Source of the DNA: an uncultured Pirellulales bacterium
GTDB taxonomy: Bacteria; Planctomycetota; Phycisphaerae; Sedimentisphaerales; SM23-30
Direction: 5' to 3'
NCBI GenBank assembly: GCA_964580995.1
Contig: CAZOMV010000007.1
Location: forward strand, 11,096-75,095
Length of the DNA stretch: 64,000 nucleotides
Shown one piece after another: positions 5,663 to 45,813 of this stretch (its first letter is position 1; the number at the start of each line of letters is the position of its first letter). Both the position numbers and the translations under genes were made by a program. The notes under the pieces are model-generated. The model did no database searches, was not told the DNA's origin, and worked only from the letters and a program-made list of their open reading frames with translations.

Positions 5663-5674
5663 AACAGATTCTCC

Positions 5675-8113: not shown

Positions 8114-8143
8114 GCGAATCTCCCGTATGAGCATATTATCCAG

Positions 8144-9517: not shown

Positions 9518-9558
9518 TTGCTAAAAACTCCATAAAAAATCATTCAAACTATTTATAT

Positions 9559-12906: not shown

Positions 12907-12951
12907 TTTATTACTCCAGATTGATAAAAATCAGTCCAATTTTCGGGGCCG

Positions 12952-14391: not shown

Positions 14392-14446
14392 TTTTTGCAC
14401 TCCATATAAAATTGAAAACGTATAAAACCTGTTTTACTCAATTACT

Positions 14447-15787
14447 CTATACATACCAGGGGCTGCGCGTGGACCGGGCCAAAAGCCGCTGGGCCTCGGG
14501 ATTGTTCAAAATTTCTTCTTTTTCGGGATCCCAGCGGATGGGGCTTTTGGTCAGCATGGCGATATTCAGCAAATGGCAGATGGTCGCGGTGCGATGACCG
14601 ATTTCCACGGAGGCCATCGGCTGATTGCGGGTTTTCACGGCATCGAGGAAATTCCGGTGGTGGCCGGGGCTGCGTCCCAGATGAACTTCCTCCGGCCGCA
14701 GTGTTTCCTGCAGCAGCGAGGCCGGCTCGGCCTCCAGCATTCCGCCGTGAATATGGATAAAGATCCAGCCGTCGCTGCCGATGAATTTCAGGCCGCGGGG
14801 ATCGACGCTGGCGCCGATCATTTTTACCCCGTTGGCATAGGTGCATTCGAAATCATACTTCATATAGGCATCGTACAGGCCGCTTTTGGGTGCCTCGCCT
14901 TCGGCCCGCAGCTCCACCGGACCGGTATGATCCGTACCGTTGCCCAACTGGCCGATATCGATAATGTGGGCGCCGCGGTCGGTCATCTCCCCGCCGCCGT
15001 AGTTGAAAATGAACCGCCACCAGAAATGGCAGCGCCGTTCGGTATAGGGAACCCAGGGAGTCGGCCCCAGCCACATGTCATAATCCAGACTCTCCGGAAC
15101 GGGCATATTGGGAAAGATATTTTCATTATTGATGATTTCCAGGTGATGCGGGTCGCTGTTGGGCATGTTAATCTGGATGGTATGCAGTTTGCCGATGCGG
15201 CCGTTGCGGACCAGTTCGCAGGCAAACCGGACGCTGTGCCGGGACCGCTCATGCGTACCGTTTTGCAGAATCCGCCCGTAACGCTGAACCGCCCGGCGTA
15301 CCGCGATCCCCTCGGCAATGGTATTGACCAGCGGTTTTTCACAATAGATATCCTTGCCGGACTCCGCCGCCGCAATCGTAATCAAGCCATGCCAGTGGTC
15401 CGGGGTGCCGATGGAAACCGCGTCGATATCCTGCCGGGCCGTTAGCTCGCGGAAATCGCGGTATTCCGCACAGCCGTCCCCGCCGCCGGACTTATCCTGC
15501 TGGGCGTAAAAATCCTGCACGATTTTTTTCGCCCGGGCCTTGTGATTGGCATCCACATCGCAGACCGCCACCACCTGGACTTCCGGCTGATTCAGAAACG
15601 CCTGCATGTTGCCGGTCCCCTGGCCGCCTACCCCGATACAGCCCATCACAACGCGGTTGCTGGGGGCCACCGCACCATCCAGGCCTAGGGCACGGCCGGG
15701 AATAATCGTGGGAAATCCGATGATGCCGCCGGCAGAGGCCAGGGCGGTACCTTTCAGAAATTGACGCCGGGAAATTTTTTTGGTCAT
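14447..15787 (-). CDS. TAT-exported Gfo/Idh/MocA oxidoreductase (paralogue 1 of tandem array)
   Basis: TAT signal SRRQFLKGTALASAGG, Rossmann motif GCIGVGGQG, and block IGTPDHWH...YCEKPL. Confidence 0.9.
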   Translation of the reverse strand: MTKKISRRQFLKGTALASAGGIIGFPTIIPGRALGLDGAVAPSNRVVMGCIGVGGQGTGNMQAFLNQPEVQVVAVCDVDANHKARAKKIVQDFYAQQDKSGGGDGCAEYRDFRELTARQDIDAVSIGTPDHWHGLITIAAAESGKDIYCEKPLVNTIAEGIAVRRAVQRYGRILQNGTHERSRHSVRFACELVRNGRIGKLHTIQINMPNSDPHHLEIINNENIFPNMPVPESLDYDMWLGPTPWVPYTERRCHFWWRFIFNYGGGEMTDRGAHIIDIGQLGNGTDHTGPVELRAEGEAPKSGLYDAYMKYDFECTYANGVKMIGASVDPRGLKFIGSDGWIFIHIHGGMLEAEPASLLQETLRPEEVHLGRSPGHHRNFLDAVKTRNQPMASVEIGHRTATICHLLNIAMLTKSPIRWDPEKEEILNNPEAQRLLARSTRSPWYV

Positions 15788-15816
15788 ACTTTACATCCTT
15801 TTATTTTTATTATTCC

Positions 15817-17130
15817 TTACAGCCGCCAGGGACTGCGCATCGCACTGCCGAGCATCTGGGAAGCGGCCGGGTCGCCGATAATCTCTTCGGTATCCGGATT
15901 GAAACGAATCTTTCTGCCCAGCAGCATCGAAATCTGACCCAGATGGCCGGGCGAGGCGGACCGATGCGCTACTTCACACGGGGTCAGGGTAGTGCTGCGG
16001 GTTTTAATGCAATCCAGGAAATTACGCTGGTGGCCGGGCGAACGGTACAGGTTAATCTCATTCGGGCTGAATTTTTCTTCCAGTAAACTTTTGGGTTCCG
16101 CTTCCAAAAAGCCGCGGTTCACCCAGACCCAGCCGTCTTCTCCAATCCATTTGGTCCCGTGGCCGATCTGGTCATAGCCGCCGGCCATAATCATCTCCAG
16201 GCCGCTGGCATATTTAACGGTCACATAATATTTGGTGGCGGCATTCCAGAGTCCGCTGGAGGGAAATTCTCCCTTGCCGTCCACTTCGACCGGGCCGGCA
16301 TAGTCCAATCCCAAACCCCAGTGCGCGATATCCACATGGTGGCCTACCCAGTCCATCAGTTGCCCACCGCCGTAATCCAGATGCCAGCGCCAGCTCGTAT
16401 GGAGCCGTGCGGGACAATATGGCTCATAGGGGGCCGGGCCTAACCAGAAATCATAGTCCAGCTCCGGGGGAGGCGGGCAGATGGTTTCCTGACCGGTATT
16501 ACCGAAATCAGAAAATCCGGATGGTAATCCCACTTCTACCCGCCGGACCTTGCCGATGCGGCCATTTAAAACCAGTTCACAGGCGAAACGGAAATTGCCC
16601 ACGGACCGCTGCCAACTGCCGGTCTGCCAGACCCGGCCATAGCGTTTCACCGCATTACACATGGCCCGGCCTTCCTCGAGAGTATGCGACAAGGGTTTTT
16701 CACTATAAATATCTTTGCCGGCCTTCGCGGCGGTGATCGCACAAATCGCATGCCAATGATCCGGTGTAGCGCAGGAAACGGCGTCAATGTCCCCCCGGGC
16801 CAGCAGGTCACGGAAATCATGGTAGGCTTTGCAATCCTGATTGCCATATACTTCATCAACCCGGTTTTTCGCCTTGTTGAGATGTTTCTGGTCCAGATCG
16901 CAGACCGCGACGACCTGACAATCTTTTTCATTCAGAAAGGCATTCATATTATCCCCGCCCATCCAGCCCACACCGATACAACCTAGTGTAATCCGATTAC
17001 TGGCTGCGACCGAACCATCACGTCCCAGGGCGGAAGAGGAAATCAAATAAGGAAAACTGACCGCACCGGCGGCGGCCAGCGAAGACTTCTTTAAAAATTG
17101 ACGTCTCGAGATGGTCTTTTTGTCTTTCAT
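15817..17130 (-). CDS. TAT-exported Gfo/Idh/MocA oxidoreductase (paralogue 2)
   Basis: TAT signal SRRQFLKKSSLAAAGA, Rossmann motif GCIGVGWMG, and block ATPDHWH...YSEKPL. Confidence 0.9.
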   Translation of the reverse strand: MKDKKTISRRQFLKKSSLAAAGAVSFPYLISSSALGRDGSVAASNRITLGCIGVGWMGGDNMNAFLNEKDCQVVAVCDLDQKHLNKAKNRVDEVYGNQDCKAYHDFRDLLARGDIDAVSCATPDHWHAICAITAAKAGKDIYSEKPLSHTLEEGRAMCNAVKRYGRVWQTGSWQRSVGNFRFACELVLNGRIGKVRRVEVGLPSGFSDFGNTGQETICPPPPELDYDFWLGPAPYEPYCPARLHTSWRWHLDYGGGQLMDWVGHHVDIAHWGLGLDYAGPVEVDGKGEFPSSGLWNAATKYYVTVKYASGLEMIMAGGYDQIGHGTKWIGEDGWVWVNRGFLEAEPKSLLEEKFSPNEINLYRSPGHQRNFLDCIKTRSTTLTPCEVAHRSASPGHLGQISMLLGRKIRFNPDTEEIIGDPAASQMLGSAMRSPWRL

Positions 17131-17157
17131 AATCGTATCCTGAAATATCCAGCTATC

Positions 17158-18519
17158 TTATATACGCCAGGGAGACCGCATGGGTCGAGCGACCATTCGG
17201 TCCATTTCTTCATCATTCACGACATGTTCGGTCACCGGGTCCCACTGCAAGGTCCGCTCGGTCTGGAGGGCAATATTCAGCAAATGGCAGATCGTGGCGG
17301 TCCGGTGGCCCACTTCCGCCGGTGCCATCGGCAGATTTCGGGACTTGATGGCCTCGAGAAAATTGCGATGGTGGCCGGGACTGCGGCCCAGATGGATTTC
17401 TTCCGGGCGGATGATTTCCTGCAAAAGGGAAGCCGGCTGGGCTTCCAGCCGCCCGCCGTGAATATGAATGAAGATCCAGCCGTCGGTACCCTCGAATTTC
17501 AGGCCGCGCGGCTGGTCGATACCACCCAGCATTCGCACGCCATTGGCATACTCACATTCAAAGGTATATTTATCGTAGGTATCAAACAAACCGTTGCGCG
17601 GAGCCGAACCCCGCGCGGAAATTTTGACCGGGCCGGAATCATCGGTATTATTGCCCAACTGGGCGATATCAATGATATGGGCGCCGCGGTCGGTCATCTC
17701 CCCCCCACCGCATTCCAGTATATAGCGCCAATAGAAATGGCCGCGCCGGCGGGTATAGGGATACCAGGTCGTCGGGCCTAGCCACATATCGTAATCCAGT
17801 CCCGGCGGGACCGGCATGGGCGGCTGGGGGCCGATGGCAATCTGATTATCCACGGGCATATTGATGCGAATCGTGTGCAATTTACCAAGGCGGCCATTGC
17901 GGACCAGTTCGCAGGCAAACCGGACACTGCTGCCGGAACGCTCGTGGCTGCCCGTTTGCAGAACTCGTTTGTATCGTTTTACCGCCTCGCAAACGGCCCG
18001 TCCTTCCGGGATGGAATTCACCAGCGGTTTCTCACAATAGATGTCTTTGCCGGCTTTGGCGGCGGCGATGGAAACCAGGCCGTGCCAATGGTCGGGCGTG
18101 CAAACCGTGACCGCATCGATATCCTCGCGGGCCAGCAATTCGCGGAAATCGTTATAGCCGGCGCAGCCTTTGTAGGTGCCGTCGGTTTTTTGCTGAGCAT
18201 AATATTTTTCTGCGCGCTGGCGGGCGGGATTCCGGCCGGCGGTCGTACTGCCTTCAAACTGATACAGTTTGTCATAATCGTCGCTGCCCTCGTTGACATC
18301 GCAAATCGCCGCTACCTGGACATCGGGTTGTTCCAGAAACGCCAGCATATTCCAGGTACCCTGCCCCCCGGCTCCGATGCAGCCCATCACAATCCGGTTG
18401 CTGGGGGCTACCGTGCCATCCAGTCCCAGTGCGGAAGAGGGAATGATATACGGAAAGCCTATCGCGCCGGCGGCGGCCAGCGAGGTTTTCTGCAAAAATT
18501 TTCGTCTGGATATTTTCAT
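17158..18519 (-). CDS. TAT-exported Gfo/Idh/MocA oxidoreductase (paralogue 3)
   Basis: TAT signal SRRKFLQKTSLAAAGA and Rossmann motif GCIGAGGQG. Closely resembles paralogue 1 (VRFACELVRNGR[IL]GKLHTI, ATICHLLNIA). I prefer ATG 18519; position 18537 is TTG. Confidence 0.9.
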   Translation of the reverse strand: MKISRRKFLQKTSLAAAGAIGFPYIIPSSALGLDGTVAPSNRIVMGCIGAGGQGTWNMLAFLEQPDVQVAAICDVNEGSDDYDKLYQFEGSTTAGRNPARQRAEKYYAQQKTDGTYKGCAGYNDFRELLAREDIDAVTVCTPDHWHGLVSIAAAKAGKDIYCEKPLVNSIPEGRAVCEAVKRYKRVLQTGSHERSGSSVRFACELVRNGRLGKLHTIRINMPVDNQIAIGPQPPMPVPPGLDYDMWLGPTTWYPYTRRRGHFYWRYILECGGGEMTDRGAHIIDIAQLGNNTDDSGPVKISARGSAPRNGLFDTYDKYTFECEYANGVRMLGGIDQPRGLKFEGTDGWIFIHIHGGRLEAQPASLLQEIIRPEEIHLGRSPGHHRNFLEAIKSRNLPMAPAEVGHRTATICHLLNIALQTERTLQWDPVTEHVVNDEEMDRMVARPMRSPWRI

Positions 18520-18561
18520 GGCTTGTCCCTTTTCCAAAGTCCTACCATGACTGGTGTATTG

Positions 18562-19860
18562 TCATATATTCCACGGGCTGCGGCGCGATCGGGAAAGCAA
18601 ACGATTGCCTTCTTCACAATTGGTGAACCGTTCCTGAACCGGATCCCAGTGCAGGGGCAGGCCCAGTTGATACGCCAGGTTGCCCAGGTGGCAAACAGTA
18701 ACGGACCGGCAGCCCGTCTCCACATCACAGATGGGTTTGCTGCGAGTGCGGATGGCCTGGAGCCAGTCGGCATAATGATTGTCACTTTCGTATAAGTGGA
18801 TCTCATTGGGGCCGATGACCTGCCGCATCAGGCTTTCGGGCCAGGTTTGCAGATAGCCCCGGTTTACTTCCACTTTTCCTTCGGTTCCGGTAAAGAGGGT
18901 ACCATTGGCCTCATCGCGGGTCATAGTCACACCATTGGCGTATTGGTAGGTCAGGACTTTATAGTCCTTACCATCCGGCGGGATGATCTCCACCGGCCCG
19001 CTCTCATCCATCCCCAGACCCCACTGGGCAATATCGAAATGATGGGCGCCCCAGTCCGTCATGCCGCCTCCGGAATAATCCCGATACCCCCGCCAGTTGG
19101 GATAGATATCGATGCTGATGTGAGGGGCCAATTCCGAATGGAAGGGCCGCCAGGGAGCCGGTCCCAGCCACCGGTCCCAGTCCAGGTAATCCGGCACCGG
19201 CTCAGCCGGCAGGAAACATTCTTCCGAGGGACCGCCGATATTCACGGTAACCGTTTTCAACTCTCCAATATAACCGTTCCGCACCAGCTCGCAGGCAAAC
19301 CGGAAACCCGACATGGAACGCTGCATGCTGCCAGTCTGAAACACCCGTCCATACCGCCGGACCGCCCGGGCCATCGAACGGGCCTCCGCTATGGTTAGGG
19401 ATAGAGGTTTTTCACAGTAGATATCTTTGCCAGCCTGGGCGGCTTCAATCACGGGTATCTCGTGCCAATGGTCAGGAGTCGCAATCACTACCGCATCAAT
19501 ATCGTCCCGTGCCAGCAGTTCCCGAAAATCCCGATAAGCGGCACATTCCATTTTATTGGATTGGCTGGCGTAATGGTTTTGGGTGATTTCCTTGGCACGA
19601 TTCAACTTCAGGTTATCTACATCACAGACCGCCAAAACCTGGGTGCCGGGCGTATTCAGAAAAGCGGACAAAAGTCCGGTTCCCTGTTTCCCCACCCCAA
19701 TAAAACCCAGGTTAATCCGGTCGTTAGGGGCGATAATACCCGTTCTGCCTAAGGCAGAGGAGGAAATTATGTGAGGAAAACTGATAGCACCTAACGCGGA
19801 GGCTATCGTATTTTTCAAAAAATCACGACGCGTTCCTTTCACCTTGCTTTTTTTCGGCAT
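18562..19860 (-). CDS. TAT-exported Gfo/Idh/MocA oxidoreductase (paralogue 4)
   Basis: TAT signal TRRDFLKNTIASALGA, Rossmann motif GFIGVGKQG, and block ATPDHWH...YCEKPL. Confidence 0.9.
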   Translation of the reverse strand: MPKKSKVKGTRRDFLKNTIASALGAISFPHIISSSALGRTGIIAPNDRINLGFIGVGKQGTGLLSAFLNTPGTQVLAVCDVDNLKLNRAKEITQNHYASQSNKMECAAYRDFRELLARDDIDAVVIATPDHWHEIPVIEAAQAGKDIYCEKPLSLTIAEARSMARAVRRYGRVFQTGSMQRSMSGFRFACELVRNGYIGELKTVTVNIGGPSEECFLPAEPVPDYLDWDRWLGPAPWRPFHSELAPHISIDIYPNWRGYRDYSGGGMTDWGAHHFDIAQWGLGMDESGPVEIIPPDGKDYKVLTYQYANGVTMTRDEANGTLFTGTEGKVEVNRGYLQTWPESLMRQVIGPNEIHLYESDNHYADWLQAIRTRSKPICDVETGCRSVTVCHLGNLAYQLGLPLHWDPVQERFTNCEEGNRLLSRSRRSPWNI

Positions 19861-19988
19861 TCGGGATTACTCCAAAACCTTGGGCAAGATCATTTAACAA
19901 AGACCATGCTTTCTATAATGATTCAAAACCGGGCATGACGTTAGGTCAAAACTTGGGTGAACACAAACTGGCTGGCCCAGGTTTCGAT

Positions 19989-20981
19989 TTATTCATCAAA
20001 CGAGGCGTCAAAGGCTCTTTTAGACGGTTCAAAATCGATGGAGCGGACAAATTCACAGGCTTCCAGGGCGCCGTGCTCGCGATCCATCCCGCTGTCTTCC
20101 CATTCGACAGAAAGAGGCCCGGCATAATTGGCACGGTTCAAGGCCCGAATGATTTCCTCAAAATCAACCCCGCCCCGTCCGAGCGATCGGAAAACCCAGC
20201 CTCTGCCGGGCTGACCAAAATTCAGATGGGAGGCCAGAATCCCGCTGCGACCATCCAATTGCAAAGCGGCATCTTTCATGTGCACATGATAAATCCGATT
20301 GGGAAATTCGTTGATAAAACAGGCCGGGTCAACCATTTGCCAATGTAAATGGCTGGGGTCAAAATTAAATCCGAAGGTCTGGCGATTTTTGACAGCTTCC
20401 ACAGCCCGTTTGGCCGTGATAATGTCGAAGGCGATCTCGGTGGGATGCACTTCCAGGGCGAACTTGACACCGCATTCATCAAAAACATCCAGAATCGGGT
20501 TCCACATCTTGGCAAAATAGGCAAACCCTTCCTCCACCATCTGGTCGGAGACGGGGGGGAAACTATATAACATATGCCAGATGGACGAGCCGGTAAAGCC
20601 GTTGACCACCTTGATCCCCAGATTTTTGGCGGCACGGGCGGAATCTTTCATTGCCTCGACGGCCCAGGCACGTTTCTTCTTGGCATTGCCGACACATTCC
20701 GCCGGTGCGAACATATCGGTACGCGAGTCATCATTCGGATCGCAAACCAACTGCCCAGCCAGGTGATTGCTGATGGCGAAAAGCTGGAGGTCATTTTTCT
20801 CCAGAATCGCTAACTGCTTTTTGCAATAAGCTTTATCTTTGGCGGCCTTGGCAACATCCATATGGTCGCCCCAGCAGGCCAGTTCCAGGCCGTCATAGCC
20901 CCAACCGGCTGCCTTTTCCGCTAAAACTTTCAATGGTAAATCCGCAAATTGTCCCGTGCAAAGTGTTACTGGTCTAGCCAT
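19989..20981 (-). CDS. Sugar phosphate isomerase/epimerase (xylose-isomerase-like TIM barrel), cytoplasmic
   Basis: Sequence [17 protein letters not shown]...[13 protein letters not shown]...[12 protein letters not shown]...YHVHMKD. No signal peptide. GGAG lies 8 nt upstream of the ATG. Confidence 0.85.
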
Positions 20982-21025
20982 AATTCTTCTCCAAATCGTA
21001 AGTTACGGTTATGTAATGGTTACAT

Positions 21026-22198
21026 TTAACGTTTCATTTTGGTCCATTTGGACTTGCTTTTGGCGCTGGTAAGCAGGGTATCGATAAACAACATGCCCCG
21101 CAGACCATCGTCCACCTTGGGAAAATCATTTTCCAGATCCGTCGGTTTGGTTTTGGCCAAATAGGCCCGCAGCGTATCGGCAAAATTGCAGTAGGTGTTG
21201 GCAAACGCCTCGATGAAGGCTTCCGCATGGCCCGAAGGCAGCCGGGTGCCCCGGGCGGCGGCTTTACTCTTGGCGGCGATATAGCCGTTGCCGCGCCGCC
21301 AAACCTGAAGCGGGGTATCCGCTTCTTTCACATATAAATAGTTGGGATGCTCCTGATGCCATTCCAGACTCTTGTTTTCACCATAAATCCATATGGCCAA
21401 ACCGTTTTCCTCACCGATGGAAATCTGGCTGGCGTGGAGAACACCCCTGGCGCCGTTATTGAAATGAAGCAGGCAGTTGCCGTCATCATCCAGGCGGCGC
21501 CCTTTTACGAATGTGGTCAAATCTGCACATATCTCGGTAATTTTCAGGCCGGTTATGTATTCCGAGAGATTTTCGGCATGGGTCCCGATATCGCCCATGC
21601 AGCCGGCCCCGCCGCTCTGTTTGGGATCGGTTCGCCAGGATGCCTGCATCTGGCCGGTCTTTTCAAGAGGGGTGGCCAGCCAGCCCTGCGGGTAAATCAC
21701 CACGATCTTCCGGATATTTCCCAAATCCCCCTGCCGCACCATATCCCGCGCCAGCTTGACCATCGGATAGCCGGTATAATTGTGCATCAGGCCGAAGACC
21801 TTGCCGGTTTTGGTGACGATTTTCTTCAGATCACGGGCTTCCTGCACATTCAGAGTCATCGGTTTTTCGCACATGACATGGAAACCAGCCTGTAACAGGT
21901 CCCGGGCGATGGGGAAATGCCAGTTATTGGGGGTCGTTACAGCCGCGAAATCAATTCGCTCTTCCGCGGGCAGTTTCAGTTCCTTTTCGATCATCTCGGC
22001 ATAAGTCGAGTACACCCGCTTGGCATCCAGGCATAATTCCTGACCCATCTGTTTGGATTTATCCGGATTGATATCGAAGGCACCGGCAACCAGTTCGATC
22101 CCGCCATCCAGCCGGGCGGCCTTCCGGTGAACCTCCCCGATAAAAGCGCCCGGTCCGCCCCCTACCATACCCATCCTCAGCTTGCGATTCAGTTTCAT
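21026..22198 (-). CDS. Gfo/Idh/MocA oxidoreductase, cytoplasmic
   Basis: Sequence MKLNRKLRMGMVGGGPGAFIGEVH..., with no TAT signal. I prefer ATG 22198 (AAGGAAAAA upstream) over the ORF-track start at 22231. Confidence 0.85.
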   Translation of the reverse strand: MKLNRKLRMGMVGGGPGAFIGEVHRKAARLDGGIELVAGAFDINPDKSKQMGQELCLDAKRVYSTYAEMIEKELKLPAEERIDFAAVTTPNNWHFPIARDLLQAGFHVMCEKPMTLNVQEARDLKKIVTKTGKVFGLMHNYTGYPMVKLARDMVRQGDLGNIRKIVVIYPQGWLATPLEKTGQMQASWRTDPKQSGGAGCMGDIGTHAENLSEYITGLKITEICADLTTFVKGRRLDDDGNCLLHFNNGARGVLHASQISIGEENGLAIWIYGENKSLEWHQEHPNYLYVKEADTPLQVWRRGNGYIAAKSKAAARGTRLPSGHAEAFIEAFANTYCNFADTLRAYLAKTKPTDLENDFPKVDDGLRGMLFIDTLLTSAKSKSKWTKMKR

Positions 22199-22532
22199 GT
22201 TTTTTTCCTTTCGCAAAAAATTCCCGGTCATTTACCTTAAATTATTATAAAATTATGTGAAATAGTGGTTTACGATTATTCCATTGCAGCCTGTCGCAGA
22301 TGCCATAACCTGATGAAACGACTAGTTTTAACTATTAGTGAATATATTTCAATAAAAATTCGCCTCCCTTTCCTCTTTTTCCCTGTTCTCTTCTATGTGA
22401 AACTTCTTCACCAGCATACATCCGTCGGTAGCTTAATTCTACTCTTTTTATTAATTTTGGTTGACAATACCCAAAAAAAACGGGTTAATCTACCAAAATT
22501 AGCCATTGGTAAATTTTATACAAAATTTTCCC

Positions 22533-23555: not shown

Positions 23556-24731
23556 TCAGGAAAGGCCGGATTCTTTCAGCACATCGTCCCTGGGTTCCGG
23601 TTCTTGATGGAAACGTTCCTTCCTTTTTGGGTTCGCCGGTTTTCCCTTACCGCCCTTTTTCGCCGGCTCTTTCCCTTCCCTGCCCGGGACCGATGGGCCG
23701 GGTTTCCTCTCCTCTGGTTGTACCTGCCGTTGATTCATCCATTCTTCCAGCTCCATTCGGGTTCTGGCCAGTTCCTGCTGGGCCGCATCCAGACTCTGCT
23801 GCATGGCCCGCTGTTCCGCCTGGATCTGTTCATATTCCTTCTGGTAATATTTTTGCTCATAGACACGGGCCTGCTGCTGCTCCTCCATTTTCCGGTTCGC
23901 CTCGGCTAACTGGTCCTTTAGTGCCTGGCATTTTTCCGACCAGTTTTCCTGCGTGTGCTGGAATTGCTCCCGCACCTGCTGAAGATCGTTATCGGTTTGC
24001 TGACAGCCGTCTTTCTGCTGCTGGATATCATTCTCCATCTGCTGACGTTCTTCTTTCCAGGCCAGGATTCGCTCTTCGAGCAGTTCATGCGCTTTGCTCC
24101 GGGACTCTTCTGCACGGAGAACCTGTTCTTTCTGCTGCTGCAATTCTTCCTCCATCCGCACCCGATCCGTTTGCCAGGCCTGTATTTTTTGTTCCAGCTC
24201 GCCCCTGATTTCCGCCAGAGCCGCTTCCAGAGCCTTCCGGCTCTGGTCCCATTCCTGGCTTTTCGTCTGCAGGGTATTCTGGATTTGATCGAAGTTTTTC
24301 CGTCCCAGGCGGTGCTGGGCGATTTCCCGCTGGAGCTGCGAATTCAGATTTGCCTTCTCCGCGGCCCATTGCTGGCTGATGTTTTGAAATTCCATTTGCC
24401 GCTGCTGTAAGGCCTTTTCCAACTCCTGGCACCGCCCTCTCTCCTGCTGCCATTGGGTGACAATTTTTTGCTGCTCACCGGCGAATACCCGTTTTTGTTC
24501 TTCGTATTTTTTCCGCATTTCCTCCAGCGCCTTCTCCGTATAACTCCGCGCCATCAGGGTGCTTTGTAAAAGGGCATCGGTATGAATAAGCTGGTTGATA
24601 CGGTACGCCAACTGCCCCTGCAGCTCCCCATGGATCCGGCGCAGGTTTTCTTCATTCTCACATCGTCGGGTCAGTTCCTCAATCAGCTTCTGCCATTCCA
24701 TACTCTCTCTGCCTCTCTGGATCGGATTCAT
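23556..24731 (-). CDS. Gln/Glu-rich coiled-coil protein with basic C-terminal tail (hypothetical)
   Basis: 391 aa, essentially continuous heptad-like E/Q/K/R-rich sequence. The tail is PAKKGGKGKPANPKRKERF. No family recognised, and the start is uncertain (ATG 24731 or 24701). Confidence 0.6.
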   Translation of the reverse strand: MNPIQRGRESMEWQKLIEELTRRCENEENLRRIHGELQGQLAYRINQLIHTDALLQSTLMARSYTEKALEEMRKKYEEQKRVFAGEQQKIVTQWQQERGRCQELEKALQQRQMEFQNISQQWAAEKANLNSQLQREIAQHRLGRKNFDQIQNTLQTKSQEWDQSRKALEAALAEIRGELEQKIQAWQTDRVRMEEELQQQKEQVLRAEESRSKAHELLEERILAWKEERQQMENDIQQQKDGCQQTDNDLQQVREQFQHTQENWSEKCQALKDQLAEANRKMEEQQQARVYEQKYYQKEYEQIQAEQRAMQQSLDAAQQELARTRMELEEWMNQRQVQPEERKPGPSVPGREGKEPAKKGGKGKPANPKRKERFHQEPEPRDDVLKESGLS

Positions 24732-24954: not shown

Positions 24955-27516
24955 ATGAAAGCCAAAACACGTTATTTTATGATGGGTCTTATTATATGCC
25001 TGGTCCAAACGTATGGATGCGCCGCTGCCGCCGGGGAACCGGTCGATACCGCTGTCTTATTGCGGAATCTGTACGATCTCGACCAGGTGGCGCTGTTGCG
25101 GGATAGTTCCTGTACGCAGTTTTCCAGCTATGACCGGTATGAAACCAATGCCGATGTCGGTAACTATCTGGCGATAGACGAGAATCGTACCGCCGTCCTG
25201 GCCGATATAAAGGGTCCGGGTGCCATTGTGCGAATCTGGACCCCCACCCCCCAGGGTACCCTTAAAATTTATCTCGACGACCAGCCGACACCGGTTATCG
25301 ATTGTCCCTTTGCCTCCTTTTTCGAGGATCCGCAATTTGCCCCGGTGCGAATACATATCTGCGGCGGCTATACCAGTTATTGGCCCATCCCCTACGCCAA
25401 ATCCTGCAAAGTAATCGTGGAAAAACCCGGCAATTACTTCTATTGGCAGATTACCTGCCAAACCTACCCAGCCGGTACGACGGTGGAAACCCATACGAAT
25501 GATCTTACACCTTCGGCTAAGGCTGAATTGGACAAAGTCTTGCAAGCCTGGCGAAATCCCGCTGATTTTGCCTTGCCCAGAACCAGTAAGTTAGGCGATT
25601 TTGACGGGATTGACCAGACAAACCAGTCGTTGGCACTGGCTCCGGGCGAAAACAGTACGGTCTTTTCCTCCTCTGCTCCCGGCTGCATCGATTCCATACT
25701 TATAAAAACCAGCGCCAGTATCACCGATCTGAAAAAAACTGTCATCCGGGCGTATTGGGACCAGGAAAAGAATCCCAGCATCGAATCCCCTATCCCCGAC
25801 TTTTTCGGTTCCGGTTACGCCAACATGGATCTTGCTTCCCTGCCGATGGTTATGAAACGGGGCGACTACTGCCTCTGCCGGTTTCCCATGCCGTTTGCTA
25901 AATCTGCGAACATTCAAATCGAAAATGGTTCCGAAAATCCCCTGCCAATGGAAGTGATAATTGAAAATCGCAAGATGAAGAATCTCGCACCCAATACGGC
26001 CTATTTCCATGCCCGCTGGCATCGGGAGATAACCCAAAATGGGATTCCTTTCACGATTCTGACTGCCAGGGGCCAGGGCCGGTTCGTCGGCTGTACCCTG
26101 ACCATGCAGGGCGGTGACCGGGGTGCCAGCTATCAGGAAGGCGACGAATTGATTTTTGTGGATGGAGAAAAAACGCCCTCTCTGCATGGAACCGGCACGG
26201 AAGACTATTTCAACTGCGGTTACTATTTCGCCGGTGGTCCCGCTCCTATGCCGCTTTACGGGGCGACTCAATCCAGCTTCGATGGGGTATTTCATTACAC
26301 CTCTGCCTATCGGTTCCATGTGCCGGATGCCATTCCTTTCACCCGGGAAATCGCCGTCCAACTCGAGCACGGCTTTGACCTGCTGGGCTACGACTGGACC
26401 CTGCCCGACAAACCCAAAACCGATAAGTGGTGTTTTCCCGGCTTGCCCTATTCCTGCACCACCTATTATTATCAAAAGAGTCCGCAAAGCGGCAAATCCA
26501 ATATTCCATCTGCAAGAAACCTTGAATATTTCCGCACCCTTGGTGCTCCAGCCCGTGATGCCGTCGAAGCGGAAGACTGGAATCCCCAGGCAACCGGCGG
26601 CCAGTTGCAAATGAAAAAATGGGATGATTTGACCGACGATATTCGCGGCACGATAGTCCCCACCCTGATCCCCGAAACAGCGGATGCGGCCCTGCATTTC
26701 ACCATCCCCGTGAAATATCGGGATCGCTATGAAATCATCGCCTTCCTGGCTAAAGGGAAAGACTATGGAAAATTCACCTGCATGGTCGGCGGCCAGACCA
26801 TCGGCCAGCCGGACCTGTACGCGGATGTTTCGACGATACCTTCCGGCCCGATTTCTCTGGGAGTGGCGGTCCTGGAACCAAGCGATAATTCGCTTACCCT
26901 GAAAATCAGCGGCCCCAATCCGCAGGGCCGCTTACCGAAAATCGGCGTGGACCGGTTTTTACTGCAAAGCCATTCCCCCTGGATTCTCGATTGGCAGGTC
27001 ATCGGACCGTTCGATAACAAAGGCTTTGACATTGCCCTCCCGCCGGGTGCGTCACCTTATGTCTTCAATTTTACCGGCATCGACGAGGTCTTCCCGCCGG
27101 AAACCGATGGTTTCATCGCCAGCAATGGGTATCAGGGCAAAGCCGCGGAAGTCACCTGGAAACGAGTCGCGGCCGAAGGCAACGGCCATGTTGATCTTGC
27201 TAAACATCTGGGTCTGGCTGGCGAAAGCAATACCGGCTATCTCTTCACCCGTATCTTTAGCCCCGCCGAGATGGACACCGAAATGAATGTCGCCCCCAGC
27301 GACAGCCTAAAAGTTTGGCTGAATAACCGGGAAATCTTCCGCTGCGAACTGGTCCGGGATCAAAACCCCGGCTACGGCTGCTGGATGCCCATCCACCTGC
27401 AAAAGGGTGAGAATCTCCTGCTCCTGAAAGTGACCCATTCCCTGGCTGCCTTCTGGGGCTGCTTTACCCGGATCCGGGATGCAGAAAACACCATCCGCTA
27501 TGACGCCGCTCCCTAA
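24955..27516 (+). CDS. Secreted DUF2961 / GH172-like glycoside hydrolase with C-terminal beta-sandwich modules
   Basis: Start is ATG 24955 (GGAG 7 nt upstream), followed by signal peptide MKAKTRYFMMGLIICLVQTYGCAAA. DUF2961 blocks: FHARWHRE, GQGRFVGC, EGDELIFVDGEKTPSLHGTGTEDYFNCGYYF. The ORF-track extension 24595-24954 is rejected. Confidence 0.85.
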   Translation: MKAKTRYFMMGLIICLVQTYGCAAAAGEPVDTAVLLRNLYDLDQVALLRDSSCTQFSSYDRYETNADVGNYLAIDENRTAVLADIKGPGAIVRIWTPTPQGTLKIYLDDQPTPVIDCPFASFFEDPQFAPVRIHICGGYTSYWPIPYAKSCKVIVEKPGNYFYWQITCQTYPAGTTVETHTNDLTPSAKAELDKVLQAWRNPADFALPRTSKLGDFDGIDQTNQSLALAPGENSTVFSSSAPGCIDSILIKTSASITDLKKTVIRAYWDQEKNPSIESPIPDFFGSGYANMDLASLPMVMKRGDYCLCRFPMPFAKSANIQIENGSENPLPMEVIIENRKMKNLAPNTAYFHARWHREITQNGIPFTILTARGQGRFVGCTLTMQGGDRGASYQEGDELIFVDGEKTPSLHGTGTEDYFNCGYYFAGGPAPMPLYGATQSSFDGVFHYTSAYRFHVPDAIPFTREIAVQLEHGFDLLGYDWTLPDKPKTDKWCFPGLPYSCTTYYYQKSPQSGKSNIPSARNLEYFRTLGAPARDAVEAEDWNPQATGGQLQMKKWDDLTDDIRGTIVPTLIPETADAALHFTIPVKYRDRYEIIAFLAKGKDYGKFTCMVGGQTIGQPDLYADVSTIPSGPISLGVAVLEPSDNSLTLKISGPNPQGRLPKIGVDRFLLQSHSPWILDWQVIGPFDNKGFDIALPPGASPYVFNFTGIDEVFPPETDGFIASNGYQGKAAEVTWKRVAAEGNGHVDLAKHLGLAGESNTGYLFTRIFSPAEMDTEMNVAPSDSLKVWLNNREIFRCELVRDQNPGYGCWMPIHLQKGENLLLLKVTHSLAAFWGCFTRIRDAENTIRYDAAP

Positions 27517-28736
27517 TACCAGTATTCATAGCTGTCATAGGTGACATAATAATCTGTGTAGTAATAGTCCGTGTAATAGGGATCGGTATAGTAGTAATCC
27601 GTGTAGTAATAGTCATCGTAGTATGAATCATAGTAGTCAACGTAGTAATAATCATCATAGTAATAATCAACATAGTAGTAGTCATCTGTGTAGTAATAGT
27701 AGTCATCATAGTAATAGTCATCGTAGTAATACTCATCCACATAGACCACTTCGGTGTAAACCGGCCAGTACCACACATCTTCCTCTATGATGTAAACGTC
27801 ATAGCTGGGCGGCGTATAGGCATCGAGGTAGATATGATCGATATCCCCATCGGTCTCAATGGTCGTATCCGAAATATTGTAAGCCCAAATAGTCCCGATC
27901 CCTGCCGGGCCGGCCAGAATATCACTCTCTTCGATCCAGTTCCAGACATCCAGCCAATCCAGGTAACCACCCGTCTCCACGATGGTTCCTGCCATACCGC
28001 CGTCCACATAAATCTCCCAAATCGCCAGTTGCGCGTAGATGTCCGAATCCAGCACATCCAGGCCGACCTCCAGCAGGTTCAGCTCTTCATTGGTGGCGAT
28101 GGTGGAATTTTCCAGATACCCGTCAATGGTTATGGTGCCGATGGTTTCGCTGGCATCAATCAGCGAATTGGCGGTCACATCGCCCCATACCTCCATCTTT
28201 TTCAATTCCCCGTCCACCAGCAGGCTCGCTTCCGTAACACTGCCTTCAATGGTTACTTTCTTCAAATCGCCGTTGACCACCAGGGCCGCATAGTCCAGGT
28301 TGCCCGCCAGCGTAAGATCCTTCAACCCGCTATTGATATACCATTCCACCTGGCTGCCGTCCAGATTCGCCGTGCTATACAGGCTGATCTTCTCGACCGA
28401 ATCCACCGTCAGATTCCCCAGATTACCATCGACCTTAATCTCTTTGAGGTCTTCCCCGGTCGCATCAATAACACCGATATCCACATAGCCGTCGCCCCCC
28501 GACTTCTTCGAGGCGGTAATCGTCAGCTTGCTCTTACTGCTGGTTCCCCAAACCGTAATCGTCTCGATCTGCTCACCATACCCGCTGTCGAACGTATCGA
28601 TGTCCATCTCCCCCCGCCCGGAAAGCTTCACCGTCACGCTATCCCCGTCGATATCGACACCTTTCCACAAACCGGACAGCAGACATCTCGGTTCCAGTGT
28701 TTCAACCTTCAGCATATGTGTTTTTTGAGCTTTCAT
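27513..28736 (-). CDS. Secreted repeat (beta-helix-like) protein with 'LEPRCLLS' N-terminus and 75-aa Tyr/Asp-rich C-terminal tail
   Basis: AGGAG lies 9 nt before ATG 28736. The N-terminus is MKAQKTHMLKVETLEPRCLLSG. The middle carries ~20-aa G[DN]L..[LV]T[VI]-type repeats. Of the last 75 residues, 40 are Tyr and 19 are Asp (my count). The stop overlaps the convergent stop of the GH172-like gene. Confidence 0.75.
   Translation of the reverse strand: MKAQKTHMLKVETLEPRCLLSGLWKGVDIDGDSVTVKLSGRGEMDIDTFDSGYGEQIETITVWGTSSKSKLTITASKKSGGDGYVDIGVIDATGEDLKEIKVDGNLGNLTVDSVEKISLYSTANLDGSQVEWYINSGLKDLTLAGNLDYAALVVNGDLKKVTIEGSVTEASLLVDGELKKMEVWGDVTANSLIDASETIGTITIDGYLENSTIATNEELNLLEVGLDVLDSDIYAQLAIWEIYVDGGMAGTIVETGGYLDWLDVWNWIEESDILAGPAGIGTIWAYNISDTTIETDGDIDHIYLDAYTPPSYDVYIIEEDVWYWPVYTEVVYVDEYYYDDYYYDDYYYYTDDYYYVDYYYDDYYYVDYYDSYYDDYYYTDYYYTDPYYTDYYYTDYYVTYDSYEYWY
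27516..27740 (-). repeat. Degenerate in-frame tandem repeat encoding (D/T/V)DYYY units
   Basis: On the plus strand this is a run of gtagtaata(g/a)tc-like units. It translates on the minus strand to VDEYYYDDYYYDDYYYYTDDYYYVDYYYDDYYYVDYYDSYYDDYYYTDYYYTDPYYTDYYYTDYYVTYDSYEYWY. Confidence 0.85.
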
Positions 28737-28840
28737 GGCCTTTGCTCCTTTCTTATTCTATCAGACCCGCCTTACCCCCGCCAGGTTAGAAAAATACCCC
28801 CCCACCAGCAAAATCCAGGATTTTCCTCTCCTCGCGCAAT

Positions 28841-28881
28841 AAAAAAGGGCATCGCCCTTACTGGTTGCGATGCCCTTTTAT
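28841..28881 (-). terminator. Rho-independent terminator downstream of the porin gene (hairpin flanked by A/T runs on both sides)
   Basis: GGGCATCGC (28847-28855) pairs with GCGATGCCC (28867-28875), giving a 9-bp stem and an 11-nt loop. The A6 run at 28841-28846 reads as a T-run on the minus strand. TTTTATTATTT follows on the plus strand. Confidence 0.75.
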
Positions 28882-32433: not shown

Positions 32434-34701
32434 TTATGAACCACCAGGTTCCAACAGCCAGTACCGGGCCAGCTCGGAAAAGTCAAAGAGGTCCACGAGA
32501 CCGTCATGATTGAGGTCGCCGCCCTGGCAGAAGTTGTTGGATTCGTCGCAGGAAGTGTTGAGCCATTGGGCGGAGAAGTCGGTCAATTCCGGCAGATCGA
32601 TGGAACAGTCCGCGGTGAGGGGGTTGGAGTTAAGATCGCAATATATATATATCCCAGGATTATTCACCAAGATCAGGGGCAGCATAGTACAATAAAACTG
32701 TGTATTAAACTGATTATCTTCCAGATATAGCCACCCCAGATTAGTCAGATTTATGATTTCCGGTGGCAGGTTTATCAGATGGTTAGTGGATAAATATAGA
32801 TTAGACAAACTGGTCAGATTACAAATCTCTTGTGGTAGACTGGTCAGTCGGTTATTGGACAAGTATAGCATTTTCAAACTGGTCAAATTGCCAATTTCCG
32901 ACGTCAGGCTGGTTAATTGATTTCCTTCCAGATAGAGATATTGGATGTTGGACAGATTCGTAATCTCAGTCGGCAGGCTAGTCAGATGGTTATTATTCAA
33001 ATACAGTCTCGTCAGATTAATCAGATTACCGATCTCTGGCGGCAGACTGGCCAATCGGTTTTCACTCAGATACAATTCGGTCAGATTGGTCAGATTACAG
33101 ATTTCGGACGGTAGATTAGTCAGTTGATTACCATTTAAATACAGCCACATCAAACTGTTTAGATTGCCGATCTCTGGCGGCAGGCTGGTTAATTGGTTTG
33201 ATTCCAGAGACAGCCAAACCAAATTGGTCAGCATCCAAATTACTGCCGGCACATTGGTCAGCTGGTTATCGGACAGATTAAGCTGTACCAGATTACTCAG
33301 ATTACCAATCTCCTGAGGCAGGCTGGTTATTTGGTTAGACTCCAGAAACAGATTAGTCAGATTACTTAGATTGCCAATCTCTGGGGGTAAGCCGATCAGT
33401 TGATTATCTTGCAAATAGAGATATTGCAGATTAGTGAGATTGGTGATCTCTACCGGCAGGCTAACCAATTGGTTACTCCCCAATTCTAGCCTTGTCAAAC
33501 TAGACAGATTCCCAATTTCTGCAGGAAAGCTGGTAAAATGGTTAGAGTCCAAAGACAAATATGTCAGATTGGTCAGGCTACCTATCTCTGAAGGCAGACC
33601 AGTCAGTTGATTAGAGTATAAGGATAATCCCTTCAGACTTGTTAGATTTCCAATTGCCGGGGGCAGACTGGTCAGTTGGTTAGAGTATAGATACAAATAC
33701 GTCAGATGGGTTAGATTGCCGATCTCCGGCGGCAGGCTTGTTAGTTGGTTATCATATACAAGCAGATGTGTCAAGCTAGTCAAATTTCCGATCCCTGATG
33801 GCAGACTAGTCAGATGATTGTAGTATAGAGGCAGTTCGGTTAGATGAGTCAAATTACCGATTTCCGGTGGCAAGCTGGTTAACTGGTTACCATACAGAGA
33901 TAGTTTCGTCAGACGGATCAGATTACCGATTTCCGGCGGGAGGCTGGTCAATTGGTTCCATTCTAAATTCAATGAGGTCAGACGGATCAAATTTCCAAGT
34001 TCCGGTGGGAGGCTGATCAAATGGTTCATGCTCAAATCCAGCAATCTCAGATGTGTCAGATTCCCGATCGACGTCGGGAAGTTGGTTAGTCCGCTATGCC
34101 GCAAATATAAATTTGCCAGACTGGTCAGATTATCCATCTCAAGCGGGAGGCTAGTCAACTGGTTATAGCTCAGGAACAAAGATGTCAGACTGGTTAGGCC
34201 GGTAATTTCCGGTGGCAAGCTGGTCAGTTGGTTAGAACCCAGAGACAGATATGTAAGCTTTGTTAGATTTCCAATCTCCGGCGGCAGGCTGGTCAGTTGG
34301 TTCCAGCCCAGAGACAAGTTTGTCAGGCTAGTCAGAGTACCAAGCTCGGCTGGAAAGCTGGTCAGATGATTTTCACTCAGAGACAGGACCGTCAGACTGG
34401 TCAGATTCCCGATCTCGGGTGACAGACTGGTTAGCTGATTCCCGTGCAAATACAATGTCTTTAGATTGGCAGCATAGCCGAGGCCGGTAAGGTTGGTGAT
34501 ACCTTGATAACTTGCATCCAATTCATACAAATTGAGCATGTCGTCGGTATCGGGGTCGGTGATGCCCAGGGCCCGTTCGACGGCGGCTTTGAGATTGGGG
34601 TCGGGGAAATAGACCGGCTCGGCGGCAGGGGCGGGCCGGGCAGAAAACAGGAGAGTCAGGAAAACCGGAATCGATACCCAAATAAAGGTTTTTGCTTTCA
34701 T
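32434..34701 (-). CDS. Secreted leucine-rich-repeat protein (~25 x 23-aa LRR) with C-terminal dockerin-like Ca-binding motif
   Basis: Start is ATG 34701 (GGAGG 6 nt upstream), followed by a signal peptide. The repeat consensus is NQLTSLPPEIGNLT.LT.L.L. The C-terminus is GGDLNHDGLVDLFDFSELARYWL. Confidence 0.9.
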   Translation of the reverse strand: MKAKTFIWVSIPVFLTLLFSARPAPAAEPVYFPDPNLKAAVERALGITDPDTDDMLNLYELDASYQGITNLTGLGYAANLKTLYLHGNQLTSLSPEIGNLTSLTVLSLSENHLTSFPAELGTLTSLTNLSLGWNQLTSLPPEIGNLTKLTYLSLGSNQLTSLPPEITGLTSLTSLFLSYNQLTSLPLEMDNLTSLANLYLRHSGLTNFPTSIGNLTHLRLLDLSMNHLISLPPELGNLIRLTSLNLEWNQLTSLPPEIGNLIRLTKLSLYGNQLTSLPPEIGNLTHLTELPLYYNHLTSLPSGIGNLTSLTHLLVYDNQLTSLPPEIGNLTHLTYLYLYSNQLTSLPPAIGNLTSLKGLSLYSNQLTGLPSEIGSLTNLTYLSLDSNHFTSFPAEIGNLSSLTRLELGSNQLVSLPVEITNLTNLQYLYLQDNQLIGLPPEIGNLSNLTNLFLESNQITSLPQEIGNLSNLVQLNLSDNQLTNVPAVIWMLTNLVWLSLESNQLTSLPPEIGNLNSLMWLYLNGNQLTNLPSEICNLTNLTELYLSENRLASLPPEIGNLINLTRLYLNNNHLTSLPTEITNLSNIQYLYLEGNQLTSLTSEIGNLTSLKMLYLSNNRLTSLPQEICNLTSLSNLYLSTNHLINLPPEIINLTNLGWLYLEDNQFNTQFYCTMLPLILVNNPGIYIYCDLNSNPLTADCSIDLPELTDFSAQWLNTSCDESNNFCQGGDLNHDGLVDLFDFSELARYWLLEPGGS
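32712..34500 (-). repeat. 69-bp periodic coding repeat (LRR array)
   Basis: About 25-26 consecutive 23-codon units with conserved L/N positions. Unit boundaries are approximate. Confidence 0.85.
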
Positions 34702-34832
34702 TTTTGCCTCCAAACAGAAAGAATACTGCCAACCATAATTATGTCCTGTCAATAAACCTGGAACCAGCCAACGTTTTGCTTATATCACAGGGGCCAGAAA
34801 CGGGGTCGGACCTCTTCAATTTCTTCCTCATT

Positions 34833-45556: not shown

Positions 45557-45813
45557 AATTACTATCTCCAATAAAGTAAATCAAGCCGATTATCTATATG
45601 TGTATTTCTTCAAATCGCTTAGCAAACCAATCTCTCATGGGCACCAGCCCTGCCGGCTGCCCACTATGCCGATCCTGTTTCGCTGGAACACCTATTTTCC
45701 TCTTTGTGGCTCGCAATGTAAAGACCAAAATAGACAATGGCATAGGCATAATTTGTCCCTCCAGGTTTCCTGCGCAAAGCCCCGTTTTCCCTATATCTCG
45801 CCATCCCTTCGCC

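Follow-up and report, generated by a model that had tools for sequence, protein, structure and literature searches.

A conserved tyrosine- and aspartate-rich tail on a putative surface-stalk protein of Sedimentisphaerales planctomycetes

A 64,000-nucleotide stretch of contig CAZOMV010000007.1 (GenBank assembly GCA_964580995.1, an uncultured planctomycete), referred to here as the window, encodes a 407-amino-acid protein whose last 75 residues consist mostly of tyrosine and aspartate. About 20 homologues from independent metagenomes and from metagenome-assembled genomes (MAGs) of the Phycisphaerae/Sedimentisphaerales share its conserved body and likewise end in a Tyr/Asp tail. The function that we favour, with a probability of roughly 0.4, is that of a surface stalk that would present a multivalent end, bridged by cations and either adhesive or self-associating.

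The features of the gene, all on the minus strand, are as follows.

27513–28736, minus strand: complete coding sequence of the Tyr/Asp-tail protein, 407 amino acids plus stop, from the open reading frame (ORF) listing, the sequence and the homologues
27516–27740, minus strand: Tyr/Asp tail, residues 333–407, degenerate Y-Y-Y-x-D pentads, ending ...YEYWY
27741–27821, minus strand: conserved junction, residues 306–332, E-E-D-x-W-Y-W-P-V-Y...Y-V, low AlphaFold2 confidence
27822–28484, minus strand: predicted long hairpin and beta-solenoid, residues 85–305, about 9 rungs of about 20 residues each
28509–28673, minus strand: predicted beta-sandwich domain, residues 22–76, with an invariant W-x-G-x-D-x-D-G-D, a candidate Ca2+ loop
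28671–28712, minus strand: planctomycete 'extracellular'/LEPR-XLL-type motif, residues 9–22, LKVETLEPRCLLSG
28745–28749, minus strand: AGGAG ribosome-binding site, 8 nt 5' of the ATG, read from the sequence
28841–28875, minus strand: terminator-like hairpin and T-run, 3' of the upstream porin-like gene, read from the sequence

Composition and repeat structure of the tail

The last 75 codons encode 40 Tyr, 19 Asp, 6 Thr, 4 Val, 2 Glu, 2 Ser, 1 Pro and 1 Trp, with no Lys, Arg or His, for a computed net charge of about −22 on the tail alone. An earlier note on this DNA had claimed a 75-residue tail with 40 Tyr and 19 Asp, and the translation matches it exactly. Among the 33,806 stop-free 75-residue segments in the six frames of the 64 kb, the mean content is 2.0 Tyr, and the second-richest locus has 11.

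Tandem Repeats Finder identified a degenerate array with a period of 15 nt (9 copies, 68% matches) and further periods of 12, 24, 33 and 66 nt in the tail, so the degenerate 12–15-nt in-frame units described in the note are present. The residue autocorrelation at a lag of five is 0.51 for Tyr and 0.45 for Asp, which makes the repeat unit a degenerate Y-Y-Y-x-D pentad. Codon use within the tail is mixed (TAT 18, TAC 22, GAT 12, GAC 7), which marks the repeat as one kept in the protein and sets it apart from a recent DNA microsatellite.

AlphaFold2 predicts a disordered tail. In the full-length model the predicted local distance difference test (pLDDT) score falls below 50 beyond residue 318, with block means of 24–32 over the tail, and a model of the tail alone has a mean pLDDT of 44 and no secondary structure.

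Conservation of the tail

A protein homologue search of 5.8 billion sequences found 16 homologues at E ≤ 1e-77, with lengths of 282–409 amino acids and identities of 42–89%. Those with an intact C-terminus have a common body and then either an aromatic/acidic tail or, in P0005 and P0011, a variant tail described below (P and L numbers are our own handles for proteins and loci). A profile search added P0017 and P0021, both with Tyr/Asp tails, and the MAG loci L003–L006 add more. Scanning of genomes placed the family in MAGs of the Sedimentisphaerales and Phycisphaerae, along with one partial match in a Pirellulales MAG. L003, in a Planctomycetota MAG, is a 90%-identical orthologue of the window gene.

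Tyr/Asp tails across the family are 36–123 residues long and contain 33–51% Tyr and 17–25% Asp. Of the 14 Tyr/Asp tails, 12 lack both Lys and Arg, and the remaining two have a single Lys or Arg. One 90% cluster contains alleles of 408, 408, 406 and 387 amino acids in addition to the window copy, and the differences among these alleles are confined to the tail and are all in frame. Between the window gene and L003, the tails differ by 11 synonymous and 5 non-synonymous codons and by insertions or deletions of 4 and 3 codons. These comparisons indicate that the composition of the tail is conserved, while its length is free to vary through in-frame gain and loss of repeats.

The earlier note had raised assembly collapse or a frameshift as a concern. 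Because independent assemblies keep the same frame and synonymous differences are in excess in the tail, the tail is not such an artefact; an assembly error, a wrong frame and a neutral microsatellite were each rejected on these grounds together with the in-frame insertions and deletions and the mixed codon use. Judged from these alignments, the gene is genuine and under selection.

The proximal part of the tail can be aligned by position. It reads E-D-x-W-Y-W-P-V-Y-D-x-x-Y-I-D, followed by YYDPYYWDTYYYDD in many members, and in the consensus of the tail alignment (xWDDLxIxxEDxWYWPVYDxxYID) W15 is nearly invariant and P16 is invariant. Many members terminate in G-x-Y-[VI]-D-[VF]-[YW]-W.

Predicted structure of the body

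The whole protein has a mass of about 46.6 kDa, a computed net charge of about −62 and a computed isoelectric point (pI) of at most 4.05. The AlphaFold2 model was built from a 17-sequence alignment and has a predicted template modelling score of 0.72. The beta-sandwich has strands at residues 22–28, 33–39, 43–50, 55–63 and 70–76, with block-mean pLDDT of 78–94, and W24, G26, D28, D30, G31 and D32 within it are invariant in the alignment. The 'DVDGD' start recurs in hundreds of distant relatives.

The central repeats of about 20 residues, taken in the earlier note as a possible beta-helix, are folded as a beta-solenoid by AlphaFold2. Strand pairs begin at residues 130, 150, 171, 192, 212, 232, 252, 272 and 291, and block-mean pLDDT is mostly 93–98, dropping to 84–85 toward the C-terminal end. 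The stalk fold is thus predicted with confidence. A Foldseek comparison with the PDB found only beta-helix neighbours (the HxuA TPS domain, putative adhesins and MpAFP), none of them significant (E ≥ 0.05, TM ≤ 0.27). A sequence search of the PDB found no real match, and the family profile overlapped Der p 1 only spuriously, in a Tyr-rich stretch.

N-terminal motif and export

The N-terminus of the protein reads MKAQKTHMLKVETLEPRCLLSG. Residues 11–21 (V-E-T-L-E-P-R-C-L-L-S) fit the consensus ExLExRxLL(S/A) within the first 30 residues or so, and L9, E12, L14, E15, R17, L19 and S21 are invariant in the 17-sequence alignment. The LE.R.LLS pattern, which the earlier note had linked to large secreted planctomycete proteins, is indeed a known planctomycete N-terminal 'extracellular' motif (PF07595/NF012209), with a score that is below threshold here: NF012209 gives 12.8 bits for the window protein against a curated cut-off of 17, and PF07595 has no match at E ≤ 1. 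Across the family, weak matches are found to NF012209 in 8 of 17 members (best E = 2.7e-4) and to PF07595 in 5 of 17 (best E = 3.3e-3). The N-terminus has no hydrophobic core of the Sec type, with a hydropathy maximum of 1.17, and the label 'secreted' would therefore rest on the N-terminal motif.

The planctomycete motif RRLxxExLExRxLLA (PF07595) has been proposed as a novel export signal, with the surface location of its bearers assumed (PMC8567305). Of the 52 proteins with the motif in Tuwongella immobilis, proteomics detected 20, and 8 of these appeared solely in the fraction soluble in sodium dodecyl sulfate (PMC8567305).

Wider family and distribution of tyrosine-rich tails

The profile search covered 1.84 billion representatives at E ≤ 1e-3, and 1413 proteins match the profile. 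The sandwich-plus-solenoid module is common among them. Most often it is preceded by LEPRxLLS or LESRIAPA at the N-terminus, and the largest protein that contains it has 7545 amino acids. Some of the giant proteins with the module also have FG-GAP, Big_9 or cyclophilin domains.

Tyr-rich tails are found only in the closest group. P0001–P0004, P0006–P0010, P0012, P0014, P0015 and P0017 have 17–23 Tyr in their best 40-residue segment, and P0021 has 13; L004–L006 belong to the same Tyr-rich group, with tails of 35–47% Tyr. The other relatives outside the closest group have at most 8 Tyr in the best segment. From this distribution the tail appears to be a subfamily-specific replacement of the C-terminal 'business end' among relatives that share the module.

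A sister subgroup has a different ending. P0005, P0018 and P0019 have the family body and then a linker of Asp and His, in some cases with Tyr (e.g. HHHDD, DEDHDDGYHHGKHHQDD), and in P0011 and P0022 the linker is rich in Asp, Glu and Gly. All five end in a Phe-rich, two-strand sequence (FFFVSFGG..LRIGFGFSF). Linkers of the His/Asp kind resemble metal-binding versions of the tail design, and the apparent common element of the Tyr/Asp and sister tails is an acidic, ligand-rich linker with an aromatic terminus. Among more distant relatives (P0047–P0160), many larger proteins with the N-terminal module have another, well-conserved C-terminal motif, ...DHFGFVAEEIGSxKIGGxxxxLTAGxxNDxxxLxxxGDVxxREV, and this GDVxxREV-type ending looks like a further uncharacterised planctomycete C-terminal domain.

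The earlier note knew of no described domain like the tail, and none was found among the family models, solved structures and literature searched. Literature searches on LEPR-XLL proteins, tyrosine-rich planctomycete proteins and DY- or YD-rich proteins turned up no such tail; the DY-rich matches all concerned dysprosium. A search of 5.8 billion proteins with the tail alone gave 22 word candidates, none of which scored, and says nothing on the rarity of the tail because neither the word index nor the HMMER bias correction copes with such low complexity.

Metagenome contigs were also scanned at the DNA level for the pattern YYYxDYYY, as a sample and not a census, so that the scan does not set the uniqueness of the tail beyond its relatives. 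Among the matches listed, most are (TAT/TAC)n simple repeats, and the real coding examples are L022, L110, L057 and L036 (a fragment). L022 (5514–7163, plus strand) encodes an outer-membrane-type protein, which we take from its sequence to be FadL-like, with WYSDYYYDYYYDDYYYDDYY in an apparent loop. L110 (433–6057, minus strand) encodes an envelope-type protein of 1874 amino acids with a signal-peptide-like N-terminus that contains DYDYYYDDYYYYEDY; this one is presumably alpha-2-macroglobulin-like, again read from the sequence and not a search result. L057 (634–2763, plus strand) is eukaryotic-looking; it contains Cys-rich GDGxCD...WDGGDCC repeats as well as some 200 residues of Tyr/Asn-rich sequence.

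Genomic context of the family

Neighbour sets were compared for ten contexts, and no neighbour is common to them. The contexts are those of the window, L001, the contigs of P0012 and P0014, L003–L006 and L128–L132, with the neighbours of L003–L006 read from their ORFs. The neighbours seen include GH36, EngA, a radical SAM protein with a kinase, ADH with PFK, NAGPA, an M14 peptidase and a FecCD ABC transporter, as well as HemB-like and LptF/G-like proteins in L003 and L004 by ORF reading alone.

The earlier note had placed the gene next to a porin and a GH172-like enzyme. The second of these stands (PF11175 DUF2961, E = 3.7e-75); the first has no family or structure match and is only outer-membrane-like, with a signal peptide and a C-terminal ...QFQF. 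As neither neighbour is conserved, both are incidental and uninformative on function. Proposals of an operon or a partner gene (porin, GH172, radical SAM, kinase or FecCD transporter) were rejected, each neighbour occurring in one context only.

No sulfotransferase, peroxidase, tyrosinase or laccase was found among the Pfam-annotated homologue neighbours or the scanned window genes. Likewise, no genes of a type 1 secretion system (T1SS) – ATP-binding cassette (ABC) protein, membrane fusion protein (MFP) or TolC/outer membrane factor – were found among the 20 scanned window proteins and the Pfam-annotated homologue contexts, though such genes may be unlinked.

The window sequence at 27514–28795 and L003 at 5065–6348 have 87.7% nucleotide similarity over the gene and about 60 nt upstream, and their flanks are unrelated. 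A similarity that ends at the gene borders suggests paralogy or relocation as a self-contained unit. The gene has the AGGAG ribosome-binding site reported in the earlier note, at the distance from the ATG listed above. A terminator scan had a match at 28859–28845, inside the hairpin region that follows the porin-like gene, and owing to this hairpin the Tyr/Asp gene looks monocistronic, a separate transcription unit. The GH172-like gene (plus strand) and the Tyr/Asp gene (minus strand) are convergent, with stop codons that overlap by 4 nt (27513–27516), and the scan found no terminator-like hairpin between them.

Proposed function and alternative explanations

In the favoured reading, the protein would be exported to the cell surface or the medium through the planctomycete motif, where the solenoid would serve as a stalk carrying the tail, a non-enzymatic, multivalent 'sticky end'. 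As long as the protein is in the low-Ca2+ cytoplasm, the charge of the tail and of the protein as a whole would hold it soluble and unfolded. After export, Ca2+, Mg2+ or the metal cations of a surface would neutralise and bridge the Asp carboxylates, and the packed Tyr rings could then stack and hydrogen-bond, giving self-association into a matrix or attachment to a substratum such as the envelope of the cell itself, a polymer or a mineral. Valency would follow from the pentad count.

Several observations are consistent with this function. The solenoid is confidently modelled, and the tail is conserved in composition and predicted to be disordered. The matches to NF012209 and PF07595, weak but recurrent, favour a surface location, as do the proteomic detection of motif proteins in T. 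immobilis and the recurrence of the body module in giant multidomain proteins. The invariant DxDGD and the extreme pI favour a role for cations, as do the His/Asp linkers of P0005, P0018 and P0019; His and Asp are classical metal ligands. No enzyme partner is linked to the gene in the ten contexts, and short Tyr/Asp inserts occur in other envelope proteins, such as those of L022 and L110.

Other points weigh against it. Export would depend on a motif that scores under both curated thresholds in a protein with no Sec or Tat signal, and an export role for the motif is itself a hypothesis (PMC8567305). A low AlphaFold2 score from an alignment of 17 sequences is no proof of disorder, and cation binding and Tyr-driven association are physico-chemical inferences. 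The positional conservation of the proximal tail (YYDPYYWDTYYYDD) hints at a defined binding site or fold over pure composition.

The tail could instead anchor the protein to its own envelope, leaving the solenoid as the working part, either as an acidic linker held to lipopolysaccharide or cell wall by divalent cations or through docking of an aromatic C-terminal strand or hairpin into or against an outer-membrane component. We regard this as unlikely. The conserved G-x-Y-[VI]-D-[VF]-[YW]-W end of many members fits an anchor, as does the final Trp of 8 among 20 full-length members, though Trp makes up only a few percent of tail residues; the sister subgroup retains its Phe-rich two-strand end without Tyr richness, so the C-terminal end may be an ancestral functional element. 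However, the window protein and its close alleles lack G-x-Y-V-D-V-Y-W, ending in ...SYEYWY or ...SYDVWY, and with about 50% of the tail aromatic, chance alone nearly accounts for an aromatic residue at the end. No beta-barrel is predicted (the window protein is modelled as a sandwich and a solenoid, with a terminal Tyr and Trp at −2), and no partner gene is conserved in the contexts compared. The family ends of the form D-[VIF]-[YW]-W have also been considered as part of a C-terminal secretion region, presumably resembling the acidic-then-hydrophobic termini of T1SS proteases. The protein would then be T1SS cargo, with an acidic tail, unfolded where Ca2+ is poor, in the position of repeats-in-toxin (RTX) repeats, an uncleaved signal at the extreme C-terminus and the LEPR motif serving retention or processing. 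RTX cargo has a non-cleavable C-terminal signal beside Gly/Asp-rich GG repeats (PMC8277102), and a giant Vibrio protein combines LEPR-XLL with RTX (PMC10868602); the missing Sec signal and the very low pI of the window protein also agree. This is nevertheless improbable: there are no GGxGxDxUx repeats, Pfam finds nothing in the window protein at E ≤ 1 and no RTX in the 17 members, RTX repeats occur in none of the 8 planctomycete relatives scanned, no ABC, MFP or TolC genes lie in the contexts covered, and distant relatives sharing the N-terminal module have quite different C-termini.

Covalent tyrosine chemistry, whether cross-linking through dityrosine or 3,4-dihydroxyphenylalanine (DOPA) or O-sulfation or phosphorylation, is even less probable as the role of the tail. 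The density of Tyr is extreme and every Tyr adjoins acidic residues, the context of O-sulfation, and one homologue has a protein kinase and a radical SAM gene upstream. Cross-linking of this kind has also been proposed for the Tyr-rich outer-coat proteins CotC and CotU, which form high-mass species in spore coats, where dityrosine links exist (PMC7944565). The kinase/radical SAM pair was seen only once, though, and the dityrosine or sulfotyrosine chemistry to which the earlier note pointed gained no support from the Pfam-annotated neighbourhoods and the scanned window genes, among which none of the four enzymes, sulfotransferase included, was found. In the sister subgroup His and Phe stand in place of Tyr, a better fit to metal and aromatic contacts. 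MAGs of the Sedimentisphaerales come from anoxic sediments, where the oxidants for dityrosine are scarce; the absence of a linked oxidase and the occurrence of the family in this order, whose families include the anaerobe-named Anaerohalosphaeraceae and Anaerobacaceae, together disfavour oxidative cross-linking. Least probable among the alternatives is a folded period-5 repeat, pentapeptide-like or another beta-solenoid, that extends the stalk, perhaps only when bound to Ca2+. The period of five is clear, the proximal tail is conserved by position, and Thr/Val at i−2, Asp at i−1 and an aromatic residue at i resemble what we take to be the A(D/N)(L/F)xx pentapeptide consensus. Against these stand the lack of a Pentapeptide match in Pfam for any of the 17 members at E ≤ 1, the AlphaFold2 models of the tail without secondary structure both full-length and alone, and frequent insertions and deletions that are not multiples of 20 residues and would break a four-sided coil.

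A more specific form of the favoured cation-bridged surface stalk is speculative and has a low probability. Here the tail would be an undescribed cation-switched 'tyrosine-zipper' module, a functional analogue of RTX repeats. Charged and unfolded inside the cell, it would be competent for export, and on meeting Ca2+, Mg2+ or a metal-bearing surface it would collapse and act as a multivalent glue that adheres or self-assembles. Its valency would be tuned by in-frame gain and loss of repeats, with no need for oxygen-dependent cross-linking in these planctomycetes of anaerobic sediments.

Other genes in the window

Pfam annotation of 20 other window proteins identified sugar-oxidation enzymes and a multihaem cytochrome. 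Also among them are a GH78 rhamnosidase, an AraC regulator, an ankyrin-repeat protein, a Kdo kinase and, 31 kb away, a radical SAM/SPASM protein. The region 5675–22231 (minus strand), together with 43233–45571, is apparently a periplasmic system for oxidative (3-keto) breakdown of glycosides and not a classical hydrolytic locus. It includes at least six Gfo/Idh/MocA oxidoreductases, several with twin-arginine translocation signals; a 3-keto-disaccharide hydrolase fused to a xylose-isomerase-like domain (12952–14400); a ThuA-HEAT protein (9559–12906) and a second ThuA (43233–44132); and a multihaem cytochrome c (5675–8134).

A putative surface protein of 772 amino acids is encoded at 32434–34752 (minus strand), 4 kb from the Tyr/Asp gene. 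It consists almost entirely of leucine-rich repeats (LRR_14, E = 1e-93), begins with a signal peptide and ends in a weakly dockerin-like sequence. The AraC regulator and the GH172 gene lie on either side of 23556–24731 (minus strand), which encodes a Gln/Glu-rich, coiled-coil-like protein of 391 amino acids with no family match. The 5' end of this ORF overlaps an over-long, TTG-started GH172 ORF, and the true start of GH172 is probably at the MKAKTRYFMMGLIICL... signal peptide near 24955.

Significance and comparison with known systems

LEPR-type planctomycete surface proteins are numerous and almost wholly uncharacterised. The window protein is a tractable model for their export route and the role of their ends, as it combines a compact, confidently predicted stalk with one extreme appendage. 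Tyr is rare and costly in bacterial proteins. A conserved, length-variable tail that is about half Tyr, in organisms of anoxic sediments, points to a chemistry of adhesion or assembly that does without oxidative cross-linking, and non-oxidative Tyr adhesion would be of interest for the biology of biofilms and attachment and for bio-inspired adhesives. If the tail is a tolerated low-complexity expansion, it is only a curiosity.

Like the motif-bearing planctomycete surface proteins, the window protein has L-x-x-E-x-L-E-x-R-x-L-L-S/A in its first 25 residues or so, and the D-V-D-G-D sandwich and solenoid module comes immediately after it. Unlike many of these relatives, which are giant multidomain proteins, it has only 407 amino acids and scores below both curated thresholds, and it ends in a low-complexity Tyr/Asp tail where they have further domains or a ...GDFxxREV-type end. 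At the level of fold alone, it fits the right-handed beta-solenoid 'stalk' proteins, with 9 rungs and pLDDT mostly above 90.

CotC and CotU are short, Asp-rich and Lys-rich. These Bacillus subtilis proteins are extracellular and structural, as is proposed for the window protein, and they are very Tyr-rich and multimerise (PMC7944565). The window tail differs in having no sequence homology to them, in lacking Lys and Arg and in being appended to a folded solenoid, and its lineage is non-sporulating and apparently anaerobic. With the pentapeptide-repeat proteins (PF00805) the tail shares a period of five residues and an Asp before an aromatic or hydrophobic residue, but there is no match to the hidden Markov model (HMM) and no predicted quadrilateral helix, and three consecutive Tyr per unit are off the consensus.

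RTX cargo proteins and adhesins are likewise very acidic, without a Sec signal and with a beta-solenoid body, and, as in the window protein, an Asp-rich repeat lies by the C-terminus and would be unfolded without cations. The differences are a repeat period of 5 and not 9, a repeat dominated by Tyr and not Gly, no GGxGxDxUx nonapeptides and no T1SS genes nearby. With a motif score below threshold and no RTX repeats, the window protein is filed neither with the motif HMM family nor with the RTX family. By analogy, it would work most like a small motif-bearing planctomycete surface protein, and in its physico-chemical properties most like RTX cargo.

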